Shown piece after piece: positions 25,597 to 57,687 of a DNA stretch of 63,489 nt. The notes below the pieces were generated by a model, which was not told the DNA's origin, searched no databases, and saw only the letters and a list, made by a program, of their open reading frames with translations. Position 1 is the first letter of the stretch, and each line of letters begins with the position of its first letter. The position numbers and the translations under genes are program-made. This stretch comes from a virus (lineage: Duplodnaviria > Caudoviricetes), in IMG/VR virus record IMGVR_UViG_3300050029_000088, positions 1 to 63,489 of that record. One strand, given 5' to 3'.

Positions 25597-28500
25597 ATGG
25601 CCGTCACGTTCCTCGGGCAAGTCTCCGCCATCGTGGACGGAGCGGGCGCGGCCGTCGCCGTCCCGATCACGCAGCGCGTCCCCCGATCCGATCCGACCAC
25701 GGCCCGTCACATCGTCGTCTGCGTGCAATCGTTCTCGGCTACCGGCACGCCGGACGTGTCTTCGATCACGGACGACGCGGCCATCGACCCCTTCTACGAT
25801 ACGCACTACGGGCCGGGTAACATCTACGCCTACCTGGACGCGAGCACGGGCATCAACTCGGGCGACGGCGACTTCCTCACGCATCGGTGGTATGGGCTCG
25901 TGCTCCACCCGCTCGAAGTGGCCGACGTGGTGACGGTGCATCTCACCGGGAGCCCGAGCGCGGTCAAGGTCGTGATCTTCGCAGTCGAGGGCGCGTTCGC
26001 GAACACGTCACGGCCGGGGGCGCGAGAGAATCCGACGCTCAACGGGGGGCCGCAGGGCGACCCGGCGGTCTTCTGGAATCGCGAGCCCGCCGACCTCGAC
26101 ATCACGGTGCTTCAACCCTCGCCTACAGGCTGGGGATGGGCCACGCCGAGCCTCCTGCTCTACACCGCCTTCGGGGACAACGAGCCCGGCGTTACGGGAT
26201 TCGCGTTCGATGACGGCGGGATCGCGGTGGACGCCTCGTGGTTCAAGGCCATACACGAGGGATTCTTCATCACGGGGCACAAGTCCGTCTCGGGCGCGGT
26301 GGACGACACGGCGAAGGTGGGCGGCAACTCGACCTCGCTCGCGATGGGAGAAATCGCCGGGCACGCAGTCGCTCTCAAGGCTGGCCCCGGCCCGGCCGCG
26401 CCGCCGCAAGAGGAGCGGTTCTACGCAGGGGCGTGCGCCGTGACGATCCAGTCAAACGACTCGACGGCAGTCACCTTCCGAAATAATCAAGGCACCTTCG
26501 CGATTTACAAGAAGTTCGTCGCGGCCGGGCTCAGCTACTACGCGCCGGGGGTGATCGGATGGATCAAGGACTTCGAGGGCCACATGATCCTCGATGACGC
26601 GGCAGGCTTCGCAGCGCAGCCGAGCGACCTCACCAAGCAGGGCGGCTCAGTCAACGACCCCGCGCATGGCGGCGGCGGTGGCGTGGGCGTTCATATCGGA
26701 CGACACAACTCCCTGTTCCCGAACTTGGACAAGGTGGTCGATTGGACGTGGGATTTGACGACGCGCTACGGAGTCAACCCCGGCCCGGTTGGCTTCGGGC
26801 TCCCGGCTGGCAGCTTCGGCGTGCAGGCAGTCACGATCAACAACGAGCCTTCCGTCTCGGGATCAGGCGCGACGTGCCAGGGCCACTTCTCGATCACGCT
26901 CACGCTCGGAGAGAACGGCAACCTCAGCTTCGACGTGACCTACGGCTACACGATCTTCAACGACCGAGTGGAGCAGAGCATCGTCGTCTCGGGCAAGCCC
27001 GGCTCGGCTGGGCTGTTCGTCAAGGAACCGAAGGCGGTCGTCACGGCGCTGACCGGCTTCAAGGGCATGGACTTGCTCGATGCCGCTGGTAAGGCACTCG
27101 TCAAGGTCAACCTCGCCTCGATCCCCGATCCCCGGTGCGGCACGCGGCAGTTCGCCAACCCCGCTCGCGCGGGCGTGCGATTCAACGGCGGGCCGGGCCG
27201 CGACATTCAGATCATGTGCGACAATGGCTTCGAGTCGTGGGCGACGGCAGCGGACAGTCGCGCCAAGATCATCGGACTGCCGTGCGGCGGCTACTGCCTC
27301 GATCCCGGCACGGCCAAGCTCCGGCGGCGCTGGGAGCTTCCCCACTTCAACGCGAACCCCGAGGCCAACAGGATCGGATGCTGGCAGCCGTTCACCGTCG
27401 ACCCCGCCTCGAACCACGTCAAGATCAGAACAAAGTTTGACTGGGGGCTCACGGTCAATCAGCGGCTCCACTTCCGCCGAGCGTCGGGCGGGCGGGCGCT
27501 CCCGGCTCCGCTCAAGCCGTACACGGACTACTACATCGTCTCGGTCGACCCGGCGGATGACTCGCGTGTGCAGGTCAGCACGACGAAGGGCGGCGGTGTT
27601 CTCGACATCACGGGTGCGGGCGGCGGCATCTTCGCTCGCGGCTACGAAGACGACCTCGCCGCGACTGTCGGCATCTTCTTCCACTCGTGGGAGGGCGGCA
27701 ACGGCTACCCGGACTGCCTCTGCGCGAGCAGGGCGCACGGCCCTACCGACGCCCATTCGATGAAGCTCACGTACACGCTGCCCCTCGGAACGTCGAGCCC
27801 ACCGCCACCGCCTCCCCCGCCACCGCCTCCGCCTCCCCCGCCGCCGACCGGCGGGACACTGAGCCGGTGGACGCTAGACGAGGCACCGTGGAGGCACAAG
27901 CACGTCTACATCTCAGAGGAGATTCATACCGGGATGTTCTCGCCGCAGAGCCTCGTGGCGAAGTGTGTCCAAAACAACGTCAAGGGCATATTCTTCGAGA
28001 TTGGTGACGTGGGGGAAGACCCTGATTGGCTAGCGCACGCGCTGGCGCTCAAAACATTCTGCCATCAGAGCGGGCTCAAGCTCGTGGTGTGGAACATGAT
28101 TTCGCAGATTCCTGGCACCGTGCAGGCAGTCATCAAGATGATTCAGCAGATCGGCCCGGACGCCTACGTCGCAGACGTGGAGACGCACGACGAATACACG
28201 TTCGCCGCCGCAATCGACGCGGCGTTCCCGAACCTGCCTCGTGCGATCACCGCGACGGGCGGCGGACTCGACACGCAGTTCTACGTCGACCCGTGGGGGC
28301 CAAACTGGGATGTCCAGGTGCAGGACTACATCACGCCGAACACGGGCGGCGCGACTGGGAGACAGTGCCCTGCGGCAGCCGAGAACTTCTGCTACTGGCG
28401 CTCGCCCGCGACAGGGCACCCGAACGGAATCCGGCTACAGAAACTCGCTAATGGCTCCAAGATGTACCACGTCCCGTTGCTCGAAGTGAACGCCGATGGC

Positions 28501-28614
28501 ACTCCTGGCCTTGCTCCGCAGATTCCGCTCGTGGCTCCGTGGGGAGAAGCAATCGGCGTCTACAAACCGGACGCGATGACAGGCGGCGACTGGACGGCGC
28601 TCGCTGGCGCTTAG
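25597..28614 (+). CDS. large multidomain virion/receptor-binding protein with polyproline linker
   Basis: 1005 aa, beta-rich; 16 consecutive Pro before a C-terminal alpha/beta domain. Confidence 0.65.
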   Translation: MAVTFLGQVSAIVDGAGAAVAVPITQRVPRSDPTTARHIVVCVQSFSATGTPDVSSITDDAAIDPFYDTHYGPGNIYAYLDASTGINSGDGDFLTHRWYGLVLHPLEVADVVTVHLTGSPSAVKVVIFAVEGAFANTSRPGARENPTLNGGPQGDPAVFWNREPADLDITVLQPSPTGWGWATPSLLLYTAFGDNEPGVTGFAFDDGGIAVDASWFKAIHEGFFITGHKSVSGAVDDTAKVGGNSTSLAMGEIAGHAVALKAGPGPAAPPQEERFYAGACAVTIQSNDSTAVTFRNNQGTFAIYKKFVAAGLSYYAPGVIGWIKDFEGHMILDDAAGFAAQPSDLTKQGGSVNDPAHGGGGGVGVHIGRHNSLFPNLDKVVDWTWDLTTRYGVNPGPVGFGLPAGSFGVQAVTINNEPSVSGSGATCQGHFSITLTLGENGNLSFDVTYGYTIFNDRVEQSIVVSGKPGSAGLFVKEPKAVVTALTGFKGMDLLDAAGKALVKVNLASIPDPRCGTRQFANPARAGVRFNGGPGRDIQIMCDNGFESWATAADSRAKIIGLPCGGYCLDPGTAKLRRRWELPHFNANPEANRIGCWQPFTVDPASNHVKIRTKFDWGLTVNQRLHFRRASGGRALPAPLKPYTDYYIVSVDPADDSRVQVSTTKGGGVLDITGAGGGIFARGYEDDLAATVGIFFHSWEGGNGYPDCLCASRAHGPTDAHSMKLTYTLPLGTSSPPPPPPPPPPPPPPPPTGGTLSRWTLDEAPWRHKHVYISEEIHTGMFSPQSLVAKCVQNNVKGIFFEIGDVGEDPDWLAHALALKTFCHQSGLKLVVWNMISQIPGTVQAVIKMIQQIGPDAYVADVETHDEYTFAAAIDAAFPNLPRAITATGGGLDTQFYVDPWGPNWDVQVQDYITPNTGGATGRQCPAAAENFCYWRSPATGHPNGIRLQKLANGSKMYHVPLLEVNADGTPGLAPQIPLVAPWGEAIGVYKPDAMTGGDWTALAGA

Positions 28615-33178: not shown

Positions 33179-34213
33179 ATGAACGATGACATCGCCGGGC
33201 AGACGCCCGAGGAGGACGAGCTTCTCAAGGCAGCCGAGGAGCTTGGGATCGACCTGAGCCCGAAGGACGGCAACCTCGACGGCAACGGAGACGACCTCGG
33301 GCCGACGGGGGCTGCCGGGCCAGCAGGATCATTCGGCGCACCGGGGCCGAGCGGCAACATCGGCGCACCGGGTACTCCGGGGCCGACAGGGCCGACGAGC
33401 GCAGCCGACAATCTCGGAGCGCATCTCCTCGGTCGCGTGCCGTCCACGCCGGATGCTCGTGACTTCAAGATCGAGATGCTCCTGTCGACCGACCCGGCCG
33501 ACGTGATCCTCTCCAAGCTGCTTGCGTCGAAGTCCGTGGCGCAGGCGACGAAGGACTGGGCGGCGTTCTGGACTCCTGCCCTCAAGACCATCGGGGGCAA
33601 GCCGATTCCGCCGCCGACGCCCTCGGGGAGCAAGCTGTGGGCCGACGCCGAGGTCGTGCTCGATCAGGGGCAGACCCCGCACTGCGGCGGCTTCGGGGGC
33701 TGCCAGTTCGGGAACACCGATCCGGTGGACGACAAGTACGGCAACCCGGACGGCGAGAAGCTCTACTACGAAGCGAAGGTCATCGACGGCGAGCCCAATC
33801 AGGAGAACGGCACGTCCGTTCGCTCGGTCGTGCAGGCGCTCGTCAACCGAGGCCGAGTCGGAACGTACGCCTTCTCGACCAACATCGAGACGCTCAAGAA
33901 GTTCGTTCTTACGAACGGCCCGATCATGGTCGGCTCGGATTGGCTCGACGGCATGTTCACTCCCGACGCCAACGGGTACGTTGTGCCGACCGGCAACGTC
34001 GCGGGTGGGCACTTCTACTTGCTCCGGGGATTCCTCCCCGCGATCCCGAGCCCGCAGGGCGTGCCCTTCGTCGTGAAGGAGGACACGTTCGCCTTCCTCA
34101 ACTCGTGGGGGCCGAACTGGGCCGCGAGCGGCTACTTCTACATGACCGTCAAGGACTTCGCCTCGGTCTTCGCCAACGGCGGCGAAGCGTGCGCGGCGGT
34201 CGAGCTTCCGTAG
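33179..34213 (+). CDS. papain-like (C1) cysteine peptidase with short collagen segment
   Basis: LDQGQTPHCGGF, GGHFY, FLNSWG catalytic motifs; AAGGAGG SD. Confidence 0.85.
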   Translation: MNDDIAGQTPEEDELLKAAEELGIDLSPKDGNLDGNGDDLGPTGAAGPAGSFGAPGPSGNIGAPGTPGPTGPTSAADNLGAHLLGRVPSTPDARDFKIEMLLSTDPADVILSKLLASKSVAQATKDWAAFWTPALKTIGGKPIPPPTPSGSKLWADAEVVLDQGQTPHCGGFGGCQFGNTDPVDDKYGNPDGEKLYYEAKVIDGEPNQENGTSVRSVVQALVNRGRVGTYAFSTNIETLKKFVLTNGPIMVGSDWLDGMFTPDANGYVVPTGNVAGGHFYLLRGFLPAIPSPQGVPFVVKEDTFAFLNSWGPNWAASGYFYMTVKDFASVFANGGEACAAVELP

Positions 34214-34240
34214 CCTCAACTGACAACACGCAAGGCAAAT

Positions 34241-34270
34241 GAAAGAGCCCCGCCGCAGCGGGGCTCTTTC
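34241..34270. terminator. terminator between convergent units
   Basis: GAAAGAGCCCCGC/GCGGGGCTCTTTC 13-bp stem. Confidence 0.8.
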
Positions 34271-34345
34271 TGTTGCCTCTGAGTGTTCGGTACTGTCCCT
34301 TGTTGACTCTAGGCCGGAATACCTCCTTTGTCTCGGGGTCACAAG

Positions 34346-34425
34346 TGGAGACGGGCGGACTCGAACCGCCGTCCGGCGCAGTCCCGCGTGCGGGCTTTCT
34401 GGCCGTCGATACCTGTCTCGTCCCC
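34346..34425 (-). ncRNA. ssrA: tmRNA-like RNA reduced to its tRNA-like domain
   Basis: GGGGACG/CGTCTCC-A acceptor stem with G3.U70; unpaired D-loop AGACAGGTATCGA; GAC linker; T arm GGCGG-TTCGAGT-CCGCC; own TAGACT-N6 promoter. Confidence 0.85.
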
Positions 34426-34444
34426 GTGGGTAGTCTAGCGCGGG

Positions 34445-36149
34445 CTAGCCGTCCGAGCCGCCGGGACTCCAACCCGGCGCAGACACGCACCTGCCCGCAA
34501 GCACGCGCTGCTCTGTCCGTTGACCCGGACGACCAATCCTCCCGCGCGACCGGCCCGACGAGGCGAGAGCGGCCATCGGCCGTATGCAGCCCCGCTACTG
34601 AGCGGGCGTTCGGTCACGCGGAAACTCCCGAGCGACCGGCCCGTGAGCACTGCCCTTGTGCGGGCTCGCTACTGTGGGCGCTCGGTCGCACGGAAAACGT
34701 GGGTCGCGTCGAGGGGAGGGACGGAGCCTTGAGCGGCTCCGGCAGCCGTTAGTCTGCGAAGGGGGCGCGGCGTGTACCTCAACGATCCGGGCATAGCCCA
34801 GGCAGTCGTTGGCCCAACCCTCCTAGAACACGCCAAGTTCGTCTTCTCGGCGCGACCGTGCTCAAGATGTATCCCCCGGTGGGGCGCTTGGTCGACTGCG
34901 ATCAGGCGTCTTACGTCGAGCCTACCGGGGGACGGGGCGCGGCGCTCACCCCGGCTCGCGGCGACCAACCGCAAGGAGTACCCGAGGGAGCGCCGAACTC
35001 ACCCGCCTCACGGCCACAACCTCTTACGGAGGGGCCGCGTCTACGGCGGGCGAAGAAGAACAGGAGCCCGTAACACTCAGAGAGGGATACGTGATGGCGG
35101 AACCGACTCGGTTGCGGAACGTCTGACGACGCACGCAAGCGGCCAGCACGCCCTTCGGCATGGCCCTTCATGTAGTGCGCAGGGTGGCGGCGAGCTTTCT
35201 CCGGCGTCCCGGTTCGTGACGCTCGCAGGCAGCCTGCTTGGGCTCCTGATTCGGGGACGGCGGAGGGGGCGGCATCGTTCCAACGGCTTGCCCTCTCTTA
35301 CCTCACGACTAGACCGTCCATACAGCCGGGCGTTGAGCTTTCTTCCCCGGCCTAAACTTGGTGGAAGCTCGGCTTGAAGCAGAGCACGTACTCTAAGAAG
35401 CACCGCGACCGAAGTCCGGTTTGTGAGCAGCCGAAGCCGAAGCCCCTTTGCCTGAGTTGCGTGCCCGGCAAGAACGCAGGGGATCGAACCCGCCGAGCGG
35501 ACGGTTTCTGCCCCGCCACCCTGTAGCCCGAAAGTCTCTGCTTCAAGCCGAGATTTTTCGAGACGCTCGATGAAGCGGACGGTCGCGCCGTCGCCGTCGC
35601 CTACCCTCCCCGGATCGTTGCAACTCCCCGGATACTCTCGGCTCAAGCTCGGACGTGTTACCGCTTCACTCGCCTTACCGTTCACTCTCCACGCACCTTC
35701 ATTCAGGGATCGATCGGTTGTCCGCGCGAGCTTCGCGCTCGTTCTCCGAGTCGTGGTCGTTAGCCGTCAGGGTGGTTTCGCAGAGCTACTTGCGACGGTG
35801 CCTCACGAGCGGACGGCACCGTGGCAAAAATCACGGGACATCAAGCGCACCCTGACTGGGAGCCAGAGCACGAATACCGGCGGGGCCGAGAAGCACCGTC
35901 CGCTTGCGAAGGGCGACAAGCCAAACCCGCACACGTCACGCGACGACGGCGCTCGAATGGGAAGTCTCCAATCTCCCCCACGAAGAACCAAGCCGCCGCG
36001 CGGCCCGCGCAAGCGCGAGCACCGTCGGAACGGTCGCTCTCTCCGAGAGAGAGGGAAGAACCGCCCGGAACCCGAGTGTCCGACGCCTGGCGGTGGCGGC
36101 GAGGGGAGGGGAGAGGGAGAGAGGCCCGACTCGACAACCCCTTGCTTGC
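34445..36149 (-). ncRNA. candidate giant structured RNA (~1.7 kb)
   Basis: No credible ORF; boxed GATACT promoter at 36156-36161; perfect 17-, 12- and 11-bp long-range complementarities; cUUCGg loop; tRNA-like 3' module. Confidence 0.65.
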
Positions 36150-36184
36150 ACTCTTAGTATCGACTATTTGACCCCGCTTCGCGT

Positions 36185-36198
36185 CCCCCTTTCGAGGG
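36185..36198 (-). promoter_or_regulatory. CCCTC-N4-G(A/G)GGG box of the large-RNA promoter
   Basis: CCCTCGAAAGGGGG-N23-GATACT on the minus strand. Confidence 0.6.
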
Positions 36199-36213
36199 GT
36201 TCTATGTAAAGTC

Positions 36214-36238
36214 GAAACGGCCCCTTTCAGGGCCGTTC
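36214..36238 (-). terminator. hairpin terminator after the GT2 operon
   Basis: AACGGCCC/GGGCCGTT stem. Confidence 0.55.
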
Positions 36239-36258
36239 CTGGCCTGGCGGAGACACCC

Positions 36259-36408
36259 CTACGCCTGGCGTCTTGGAGCGATCCGGCCGAGTGCGAACCC
36301 CGCGCCGATGAGCGCGAAGGCCGCGAGCACAATCCAGCCGAGCCCCAGCCCGGTGAATGGAAGCGTCCCGACGATGGCAGCCGGGCCGAGCGTGTTCGCG
36401 TGATACAT
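36259..36408 (-). CDS. 49-aa LPxTG sortase-signal peptide
   Basis: MYHANTLGPAAIVGT-LPFTG, then a hydrophobic helix and PRRQA; TGATG coupling to the GT2 gene. Confidence 0.7.
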   Translation of the reverse strand: MYHANTLGPAAIVGTLPFTGLGLGWIVLAAFALIGAGFALGRIAPRRQA

Positions 36409-57527: not shown

Positions 57528-57598
57528 CTCCGGGTCAGGGGATCGAACCCTGCCCTCCGCGTCCAGAGCGCGGCGTCCTACCGATAGACCAACCCGGA
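57528..57598 (-). tRNA. tRNA-Gln(CTG)
   Basis: TCCGGGT/ACCCGGA acceptor; CCGCG-CTCTGGA-CGCGG anticodon arm; TTCGA T-loop. Confidence 0.9.
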
Positions 57599-57618: not shown

Positions 57619-57687
57619 GGTCACGTAGCTCAGATAGGTAGAGCGCCGGGGCACCGGAGGTCGCGGGTTCGAGTCCCGCCGGGGCGT
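57619..57687 (+). ncRNA. tRNA-like gene with collapsed anticodon loop
   Basis: Intact D arm (TAGCTCAG..GGTAGAGC) and T arm (GCGGG-TTCGAGT-CCCGC); anticodon arm is CCGG-GGCA-CCGG; poor local acceptor pairing. Confidence 0.65.

Follow-up and report, generated by a model that had tools for sequence, protein, structure and literature searches.

Bacteria rescue ribosomes and tag proteins mainly by trans-translation, and a virus that brings nothing but the tRNA-like end of tmRNA suggests that this system can be redirected cheaply, by RNA alone. The locus studied here raises three questions: whether a minus-strand element of 80 nt in an uncultured peat phage is a tmRNA gene without a tag, whether it belongs together with the long non-coding stretch upstream of it, and what it might do in the infected cell. 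The window, that is, the whole stretch of DNA that was analyzed, comprises the 63,489 bp of an IMG/VR virus record, with a GC content of 65% and an estimated completeness of 71%; it contains genes for tail and tail-fibre proteins, an endolysin-like lysis protein, a primase and a methyltransferase (methylase).

Architecture of the 80-nt element

The Rfam tmRNA model (RF00023) matched positions 34343-34425 on the minus strand with 57.7 bits, the gathering score being 47 and the E value for the whole window 5.6e-20. The alignment spans model positions 1-374, with 24 nt in place of 316 central positions; the tRNA-like domain (TLD) was matched end to end at both termini of the model and the consensus was aligned with posterior probabilities of 9 or *. 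This 83-nt match was the only one reported over the whole stretch at E <= 1, and nothing upstream was aligned to the pseudoknots or the tag region. In addition, a strict TLD detector pointed to 34346-34425 as the sole place in the window. The first-pass annotation had described an 80-nt tmRNA lacking the mRNA-like domain and had named the Rfam model as a check, and the model bears out this description. The parts of the element are the following:

34346-34425, minus strand: mature mini-tmRNA (TLD only), to the discriminator A73 (RF00023, minimum-free-energy fold, alignment with DS6A)
34425-34419, minus strand: 5' strand of the acceptor stem, GGGGACG (sequence, fold)
34418-34406, minus strand: stemless D-loop of 13 nt, AGACAGGUAUCGA, of the GG...UCGAC type, loop end UCGA (sequence, RF00023)
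34405-34399, minus strand: 5' strand of helix 2a, CGGCCAG (sequence, fold)
34398-34395, minus strand: AAAG (sequence)
34394-34383, minus strand: inner hairpin CCCG-CACG-CGGG, 4-bp stem and tetraloop (fold)
34381-34374, minus strand: 3' strand of helix 2a, CUG-C-GCCG, with a bulged C at 34378 (sequence, fold)
34373-34371, minus strand: GAC linker (sequence)
34370-34354, minus strand: T arm GGCGG/UUCGAGU/CCGCC, 5 bp with a 7-nt loop of the UUCGANU type (sequence, RF00023, fold)
34353-34347, minus strand: 3' strand of the acceptor stem, CGUCUCC (sequence)
34346, minus strand: discriminator A73 (sequence)

The minimum-free-energy fold is exactly the expected TLD architecture, with the acceptor stem GGGGACG/CGUCUCC paired at 7/7 positions and carrying G3:U70, and helix 2a formed by 7 bp and one bulged C. 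The folding energy was not separable from that of shuffled sequences (z = -0.84), so it is the covariance model and the comparison that support the mini-tmRNA. After A73 the sequence continues with CUU, without an encoded CCA. The minus-strand letters read in the first-pass annotation (TAGACT, six nucleotides, GGGGACG through the T arm, CGUCUCC and A) were found as given, and the G3:U70 pair, discriminator A, stemless D-loop, helix 2a and 3-nt linker are present in both sequence and fold. Its inner hairpin, drawn with a 5-bp stem and a 2-nt loop, had to be redrawn, as the fold gives CCCG/CACG/CGGG, a 4-bp stem closed by a tetraloop.

The score above the gathering threshold, the acceptor stem with G3:U70 and A73, and the D-loop, helix 2a and T arm place the element among tmRNA TLDs. 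Its G1:C72, G2:C71, G3:U70 and A73 make up the alanine identity set. A canonical full-length tmRNA it is not, being without mRNA-like domain, resume codon, tag frame and the pseudoknots PK1-PK4. The short hairpin joining the two TLD halves, the length of 80 nt (about 62-95 nt in the class) and the location in a phage genome are those of the phage TLD-only form known from DS6A. The 80-nt element is a tmRNA tRNA-like domain closed by a short hairpin, far beyond chance.

Peat-metagenome contigs from three runs, X1 (which may be the source sample), X2 and X3, are identical to the window over the element (0 differences), with neither a joint nor an insertion; the X1 contig covers 34058-34510 and the X2 contig 33900-34429. 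Since the contigs of three peat runs agree with the short form, the mini-tmRNA is not the product of an assembly deletion, a danger which the first-pass annotation had raised in the form of a full-length tmRNA in the reads. A minor variant contig of X2 carries nine substitutions and a 2-nt deletion, all within 34430-34492 and none within 34400-34429. Close relatives of the phage were not found by megablast against phages, and no related loci were recovered through two flanking proteins.

The mini-tmRNA family and its known relatives

The first-pass annotation had pointed to a similarly reduced tmRNA in Mycobacterium phage DS6A. This precedent holds: a listing of tmRNAs in PMC4131195 includes "Mycobacterium phage DS6A (TLD only)", a passage of PMC11915505 gives the TLD-only form of DS6A again together with CDS-less tmRNAs of jakobid mitochondria and some plastids, and both refer to its description in 2009 (Mao et al., 2009). 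The literature search found no description of phage TLD-only tmRNA forms beyond DS6A.

The DS6A element was located at 28478-28560 of JN698994, where it scored 43.2 bits with RF00023 (57.7 for the window element), and the two were aligned. Both are phage-borne, have an 83-nt Rfam span and share the order of parts, the hairpin core CCGCACGCGG, a 7-bp acceptor stem with G3:U70 and A73, a stemless D-loop ending in UCGAC, helix 2a, the T arm, the absence of an encoded CCA and a -10-like hexamer ending 6 nt before G1 (GACAAT in DS6A). The 3-nt linker is GAC in the window and CAC in DS6A. The identity is only 73%, with compensatory changes in the acceptor stem, helix 2a and T stem, and the two phages have a DNA methyltransferase alone in common by tblastx, the other rows being noise. 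The DS6A gene follows gp33 on the forward strand, whereas in the window 2 kb of non-coding DNA precede the gene, which stands where convergent genes meet. The window element is a further member of the already known DS6A type and nothing new in kind.

Two sequence patterns were used to search IMG/VR for similar elements. The first pattern, with GGGG, TCGAC, the T loop and CTCCA fixed and 20-50 nt between the halves, was found in at least 119 contigs; the second, with the acceptor stem unconstrained, was likewise found in at least 119. Among the matches listed for the first pattern, 95 unique IMG/VR elements of 63-92 nt follow the same plan as the window element. The acceptor stem is paired at 7/7 positions in 118 of the 120 elements listed (DS6A included), only four of these pairs being fixed by the pattern. 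Among the same listed matches, which together with the window give 96 unique sequences, each free acceptor pair is kept in 94-95 and each of the four free T-stem pairs in 96/96, and 3-6 standard pair types occur at each free position of the acceptor and T stems. The GG of the D-loop, which the pattern does not fix, is at least 90% conserved in 55 family members; a MAFFT alignment of these 55 misplaced the 5' ends, and pairs were counted by position in a script instead.

With the second pattern, a 7-bp acceptor stem was found in 84 of the 98 unique elements among the matches listed, while the remaining 14 resemble chance hits or the 3' portions of longer tmRNAs. Thirty of these 84 elements came from loci that the first pattern had missed. 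G1:C72, G2:C71, G3:U70 and A73 are invariant in all 84 (among the matches listed), pair 4:69 occurs as five types across the same 84, and pairs 4-7 covary. Covariation together with invariant identity nucleotides in well over 100 phage contigs indicates purifying selection, and on this comparison the alanine charging of the family appears to be under selection. Judged by at least 119 contigs for each of the two patterns, TLD-only mini-tmRNAs are common in uncultured phages.

Additionally, one bacterial genome per species was scanned with a hairpin-specific pattern, which gave 40 matches: 14 complete elements with 7/7 acceptor pairs, one more with 6/7, and 25 chance matches in GC-rich DNA. These 14 prophage-type copies lie in Actinomycetota in 12 cases, and carriers of such copies include Streptomyces, Micromonospora and Pseudonocardia genomes; the alanine identity set, including G3:U70 and A73, is present in 14/14. 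From the 65% GC of the window, the RNA module that it has in common with Mycobacterium phages (see below) and the 12/14 genome copies with the same hairpin in Actinomycetota, we infer an actinobacterial host.

The family is diverse. The nearest relative of the window mini-tmRNA is only 77% identical among the matches listed, blastn of the element against phages returned only a 30-nt match at chance level, and the exact DS6A-like hairpin pattern retrieved only DS6A itself from IMG/VR. Among the matches listed, ARAGORN missed 111 of 114 mini-tmRNA loci and stretched the remaining three into "tmRNA" calls; 18 of these 114 loci have a tRNA gene no more than 500 nt away, and in 91/114 the mini-tmRNA gene stands alone, with no tRNA gene anywhere in the locus. 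A gene for SmpB was not found in the window (a record that is 71% complete) or in any of 50 carrier virus records, 19 of which are at least 90% complete, so the mini-tmRNA must use host factors. A reading frame starting from GCA in the hairpin was rejected after two family sequences were inspected by eye: in one a stop follows after five codons, and in the other none occurs before the 3' end.

The element can also be set against better known RNAs. The standard tmRNA (RF00023; for example, the genes of about 436 nt in Mycobacterium phages of about 155 kb) shares the tRNA-like domain and has PK1-PK4, the resume codon and the tag frame, all three of which the window element lacks. With tRNA-Ala it has in common G3:U70, A73, the 7-bp acceptor stem and a T arm with a UUCGANU loop, but it has neither D stem nor anticodon arm, and neither ARAGORN nor the Rfam tRNA model called a tRNA on it. 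The CDS-less tmRNAs of jakobid mitochondria (Jacob et al., 2004, as cited in PMC11915505) and the plastid forms of about 65 bp in Mallomonadaceae resemble it, in a comparison by description only, in having little beyond the tRNA-like domain and an SmpB encoded elsewhere (a passage of PMC11915505). These forms are the only tmRNA of the organelle, presumably needed for rescue, whereas the window form is a viral extra copy. A cell infected by a mini-tmRNA phage has its own full tmRNA.

Flanks of the gene and the upstream non-coding stretch

The features around the gene, and two matches in other records, are the following:

34432-34437, minus strand: TAGACT, -10-like hexamer (TANNNT) and candidate promoter, ending 6 nt before G1 (sequence)
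34241-34270, minus strand: terminator-like hairpin, 13-bp stem with 9 G-C pairs (terminator scan, inverted repeat I1)
34214-36258, minus strand: stretch of about 2.05 kb without coding periodicity (GC frame plot)
about 35597-35808 (extracted 35531-35852), minus strand: core (about 210 nt) of a conserved structured RNA module (comparison, RNAalifold)
G001:91672-91724 (L180) and G008:21865-21917 (L183): weak 53-nt tmRNA-model matches of 13.8 bits

The first-pass annotation had credited the gene with its own promoter. In favor of this, TAGACT lies 6 nt upstream, and TANNNT at this gap occurs in 10 of 100 non-redundant family members, the other 49 offsets having a mean of 1.8 and a maximum of 6; kinship among the 10 carriers leaves about six lineages. 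TAGACT is also unchanged in the X2 variant contig, a retention that is not statistically significant. Against it, upstream of TAGACT no -35 element was recognisable, and a sigma-70 scan of the minus strand called no promoter. An own promoter is therefore only plausible, the hexamer being its one recognisable part.

At the other end, the terminator-like hairpin lies 75 nt past the 3' end of the mini-tmRNA, where plus- and minus-strand genes converge, so 3' trimming and CCA addition would be needed. The 75-nt trailer between the mini-tmRNA and this hairpin contains a strong Shine-Dalgarno-like AAAGGAGG (34320-34327, minus strand), after which there is no ATG, GTG or TTG start and only a possible ATT-CCG-GCC-TAG.

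A 15-nt piece of the mini-tmRNA (34373-34387) is repeated with 87% identity 100 nt upstream (34474-34488), and directly downstream of the repeat lies a T-arm-like hairpin, CCGGG-TTGGAGT-CCCGG (about 34457-34473, minus strand). From their sequences, the two may have arisen by partial duplication of the mini-tmRNA's 3' half, followed by decay. This possible duplicate lies in 34430-34492, the location of all the differences of the X2 variant contig.

The mini-tmRNA sits near the 3' end of the 2.05-kb stretch, with convergent gene blocks on either side. The flanking genes have a GC3 of about 0.9, and no frame stands out over 34225-36400 in the GC frame plot. Searched with Rfam at E <= 1, the stretch contains the tmRNA family only. 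Two 20-nt inverted arms (35365-35384 and 35536-35555), complementary to 95%, enclose a domain within it, and a pair of tandem units, each about 80 nt long, occupies 34539-34681. Instead of a single giant RNA, the stretch may well be an island made up of several RNA elements.

The conserved module in this stretch has no match in Rfam 15. It includes invariant blocks such as CCCTGACGGCTAACGACCACGA and CGAYCCCTGAAYGAAGG, and over 55 nt it matches 202 records of Mycobacterium phages (about 155 kb each) with 87% identity; searched with short words, it turned up in 14 IMG/VR contigs (22-mer) and in 63 metagenome contigs (20-mer). RNAalifold on 10 copies predicted 37 pairs, 25 of them with compensatory changes, and a second block, which was not used to select the copies, is exact in 43 of 59. 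MAFFT and alifold on all 59 copies gave results too gappy to use. No protein neighbour is conserved across the module loci.

In one other phage, a 93,768-nt contig (L135/L236) and a distant relative having two homologous proteins in common with the window, a tmRNA and the module lie inside a non-coding island of at least 1.4 kb. Its tmRNA of 329 nt (L135 281-609, minus strand) scored 46.7 bits, just under the gathering score, and has a perfect TLD, a middle that aligns poorly to the model and no canonical ...AA tag; it may be an intermediate-sized, possibly tag-less phage tmRNA. A tRNA-like element follows it at L135 162-228. The 53-nt matches listed above come from two related module-bearing records and span model positions 1-374 with only 13.8 bits; they may be even shorter TLD-like elements, or chance.

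These observations bear on whether the gene works alone. The first-pass annotation had suggested that the mini-tmRNA and the upstream RNA act together, for example with a template supplied in trans, and had proposed co-occurrence as a check. The mini-tmRNA would then belong to the upstream 2-kb transcript, either as an RNase P or stability signal or as such a partner; it does lie 75 nt before the only terminator-like hairpin on that side of the strand, and in the 93,768-nt contig the module is followed on the same strand, after about 360 nt, by the 329-nt tmRNA. Elsewhere, however, the mini-tmRNA does not travel with the stretch. None of the 120 mini-tmRNA loci (among the matches listed) is similar to window positions 34426-36300, and a tmRNA-type gene is found at only one of 64 non-redundant module loci, 30 of which have at least 1.5 kb of downstream sequence. 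Ten module-bearing records searched whole gave three clear tmRNA-model matches (46.7-75 bits), of which only one is adjacent to the module, the other two being tens of kilobases away from it; the weak 53-nt matches come from two more of these ten. A mere processing signal would not need an invariant G3:U70 and A73. The template in trans was rejected, as no canonical tag-like frame end was found upstream on the minus strand (0 found, 0.135 expected from shuffles). Membership in the upstream transcript is thus improbable and the proposed cooperation is not upheld; the adjacency of mini-tmRNA and module is most readily explained by common ancestry or a clustering of RNA genes, rather than by an obligate partnership.

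Two further readings are less likely still. ARAGORN called a full-length tmRNA of 396 nt at 34345-34740 (minus strand) with the tag ASPHKGSAHGPVAREFPRDRTPAQ, to which we give practically no credence. Its 5' strand GGAGCCG (34740-34734) pairs at only 6/7 positions and gives A3-U70, whereas the inner GGGGACG pairs at 7/7; the tag is without the usual ...AA ending; the Rfam model at E <= 1 reports nothing beyond the 83-nt match; and the program missed or stretched the family members in the same way, as described above (111 and 3 of 114, among the matches listed). On acceptor pairing, A3-U70, tag ending and Rfam the call was rejected. It is also very unlikely that the element is a functionless, decaying remnant, either of a deleted phage tmRNA or of a piece of host ssrA used as an attachment site. 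Phages often integrate into tmRNA genes and carry tmRNA 3' ends (a passage of PMC10865867), and the 15-nt repeat beside the T-arm-like hairpin could be counted in favor of such an origin. Both TLD halves, though, are present and perfectly paired, and decay is at odds with the covariation and the invariant identity nucleotides seen in well over 100 phage contigs. An attP fragment of host ssrA was rejected since both halves are present, not the 3' part alone, and since the record (71% complete) has no match to a tyrosine or serine integrase (PF00589, PF00239).

Proposed function and a second tRNA-like element

The TLD is the part of tmRNA recognised by alanyl-tRNA synthetase (AlaRS), SmpB and EF-Tu. 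We lean toward the reading that the mini-tmRNA is charged with alanine and competes with the host tmRNA for host SmpB and stalled ribosomes. Transcription would begin at G1 from the -10-like promoter, or else RNase P would cut the RNA out of a longer transcript; the 3' trailer would be trimmed and the host would add CCA; host alanyl-tRNA synthetase would charge the RNA and host SmpB would bind it. It would then contest SmpB, EF-Tu and the empty A site of stalled ribosomes with the full-length host tmRNA. Lacking both a resume codon and a tag frame, the mini-tmRNA would lower or block, during infection, the tagging for degradation of proteins made from broken messages. In E. coli, a molecule resembling the TLD-only form is reported to inhibit tmRNA strongly, "perhaps acting by titrating SmpB" (passages of PMC4131195 and PMC11915505), and the inhibition by a similar molecule is described as independent of chargeability (a passage of PMC4131195). 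The ideas of a decoy and of a tag-free rescue RNA, both put forward in the first-pass annotation, agree with proposals in these passages of PMC4131195 and PMC11915505.

The alternative of a tag-free rescue is possible but more doubtful than the competitor. A charged mini-tmRNA with host SmpB would enter the stalled ribosome and the nascent chain would move onto its alanine; with no template to follow, the chain would be released by drop-off or hydrolysis and the ribosome recycled, with no degradation mark on the proteins and a gain in rescue capacity for the phage. If true, this would be a minimal trans-translation RNA that adds a single alanine, restores ribosomes on broken messages and spares phage proteins. 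The alanine identity set, invariant in 84/84 (among the matches listed) and 14/14 while neighbouring pairs vary, argues for selection on aminoacylation and not only on SmpB binding, and such strict invariance is predicted by tag-free rescue and not by a pure SmpB sponge. The small gene, standing alone in 91 of 114 loci (among the matches listed), also fits, as do the CDS-less tmRNAs of jakobid mitochondria and plastids, which are read as still aiding incomplete mRNAs (a passage of PMC11915505). By contrast, the reported E. coli experiment gave inhibition of tmRNA, not rescue (passages of PMC4131195 and PMC11915505). SmpB would, moreover, still be limiting, because no carrier record (0/50) encodes it. 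We know of no other experiment on such a molecule, nor of any release step shown for a peptidyl-mini-tmRNA.

Between these two readings and a passive sponge, the identity nucleotides carry the weight. If inhibition is independent of chargeability, pure titration of SmpB leaves the invariance of the alanine set unexplained, and tag-free rescue fits at least as well. The invariance of G3:U70, A73 and G2:C71 suggests that charging matters; across the sequences compared, it argues for entry into the ribosome, as a dead-end competitor or in tag-free rescue, over a passive SmpB sponge. The invariance thus gives a clear, testable contrast between "sponge" and "charged entry".

Apart from the mini-tmRNA, the window has another tRNA-like element at 57619-57687 (plus strand), which scored 40.4 bits with the Rfam tRNA model (gathering score 29) and received no ARAGORN call. 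Its acceptor stem is paired at only 5/7 positions, and it has no anticodon because the anticodon arm, CCGG-GGCA-CCGG, has a 4-nt loop. The element lies back to back with a tRNA-Gln(CTG) gene at 57528-57598 (minus strand).
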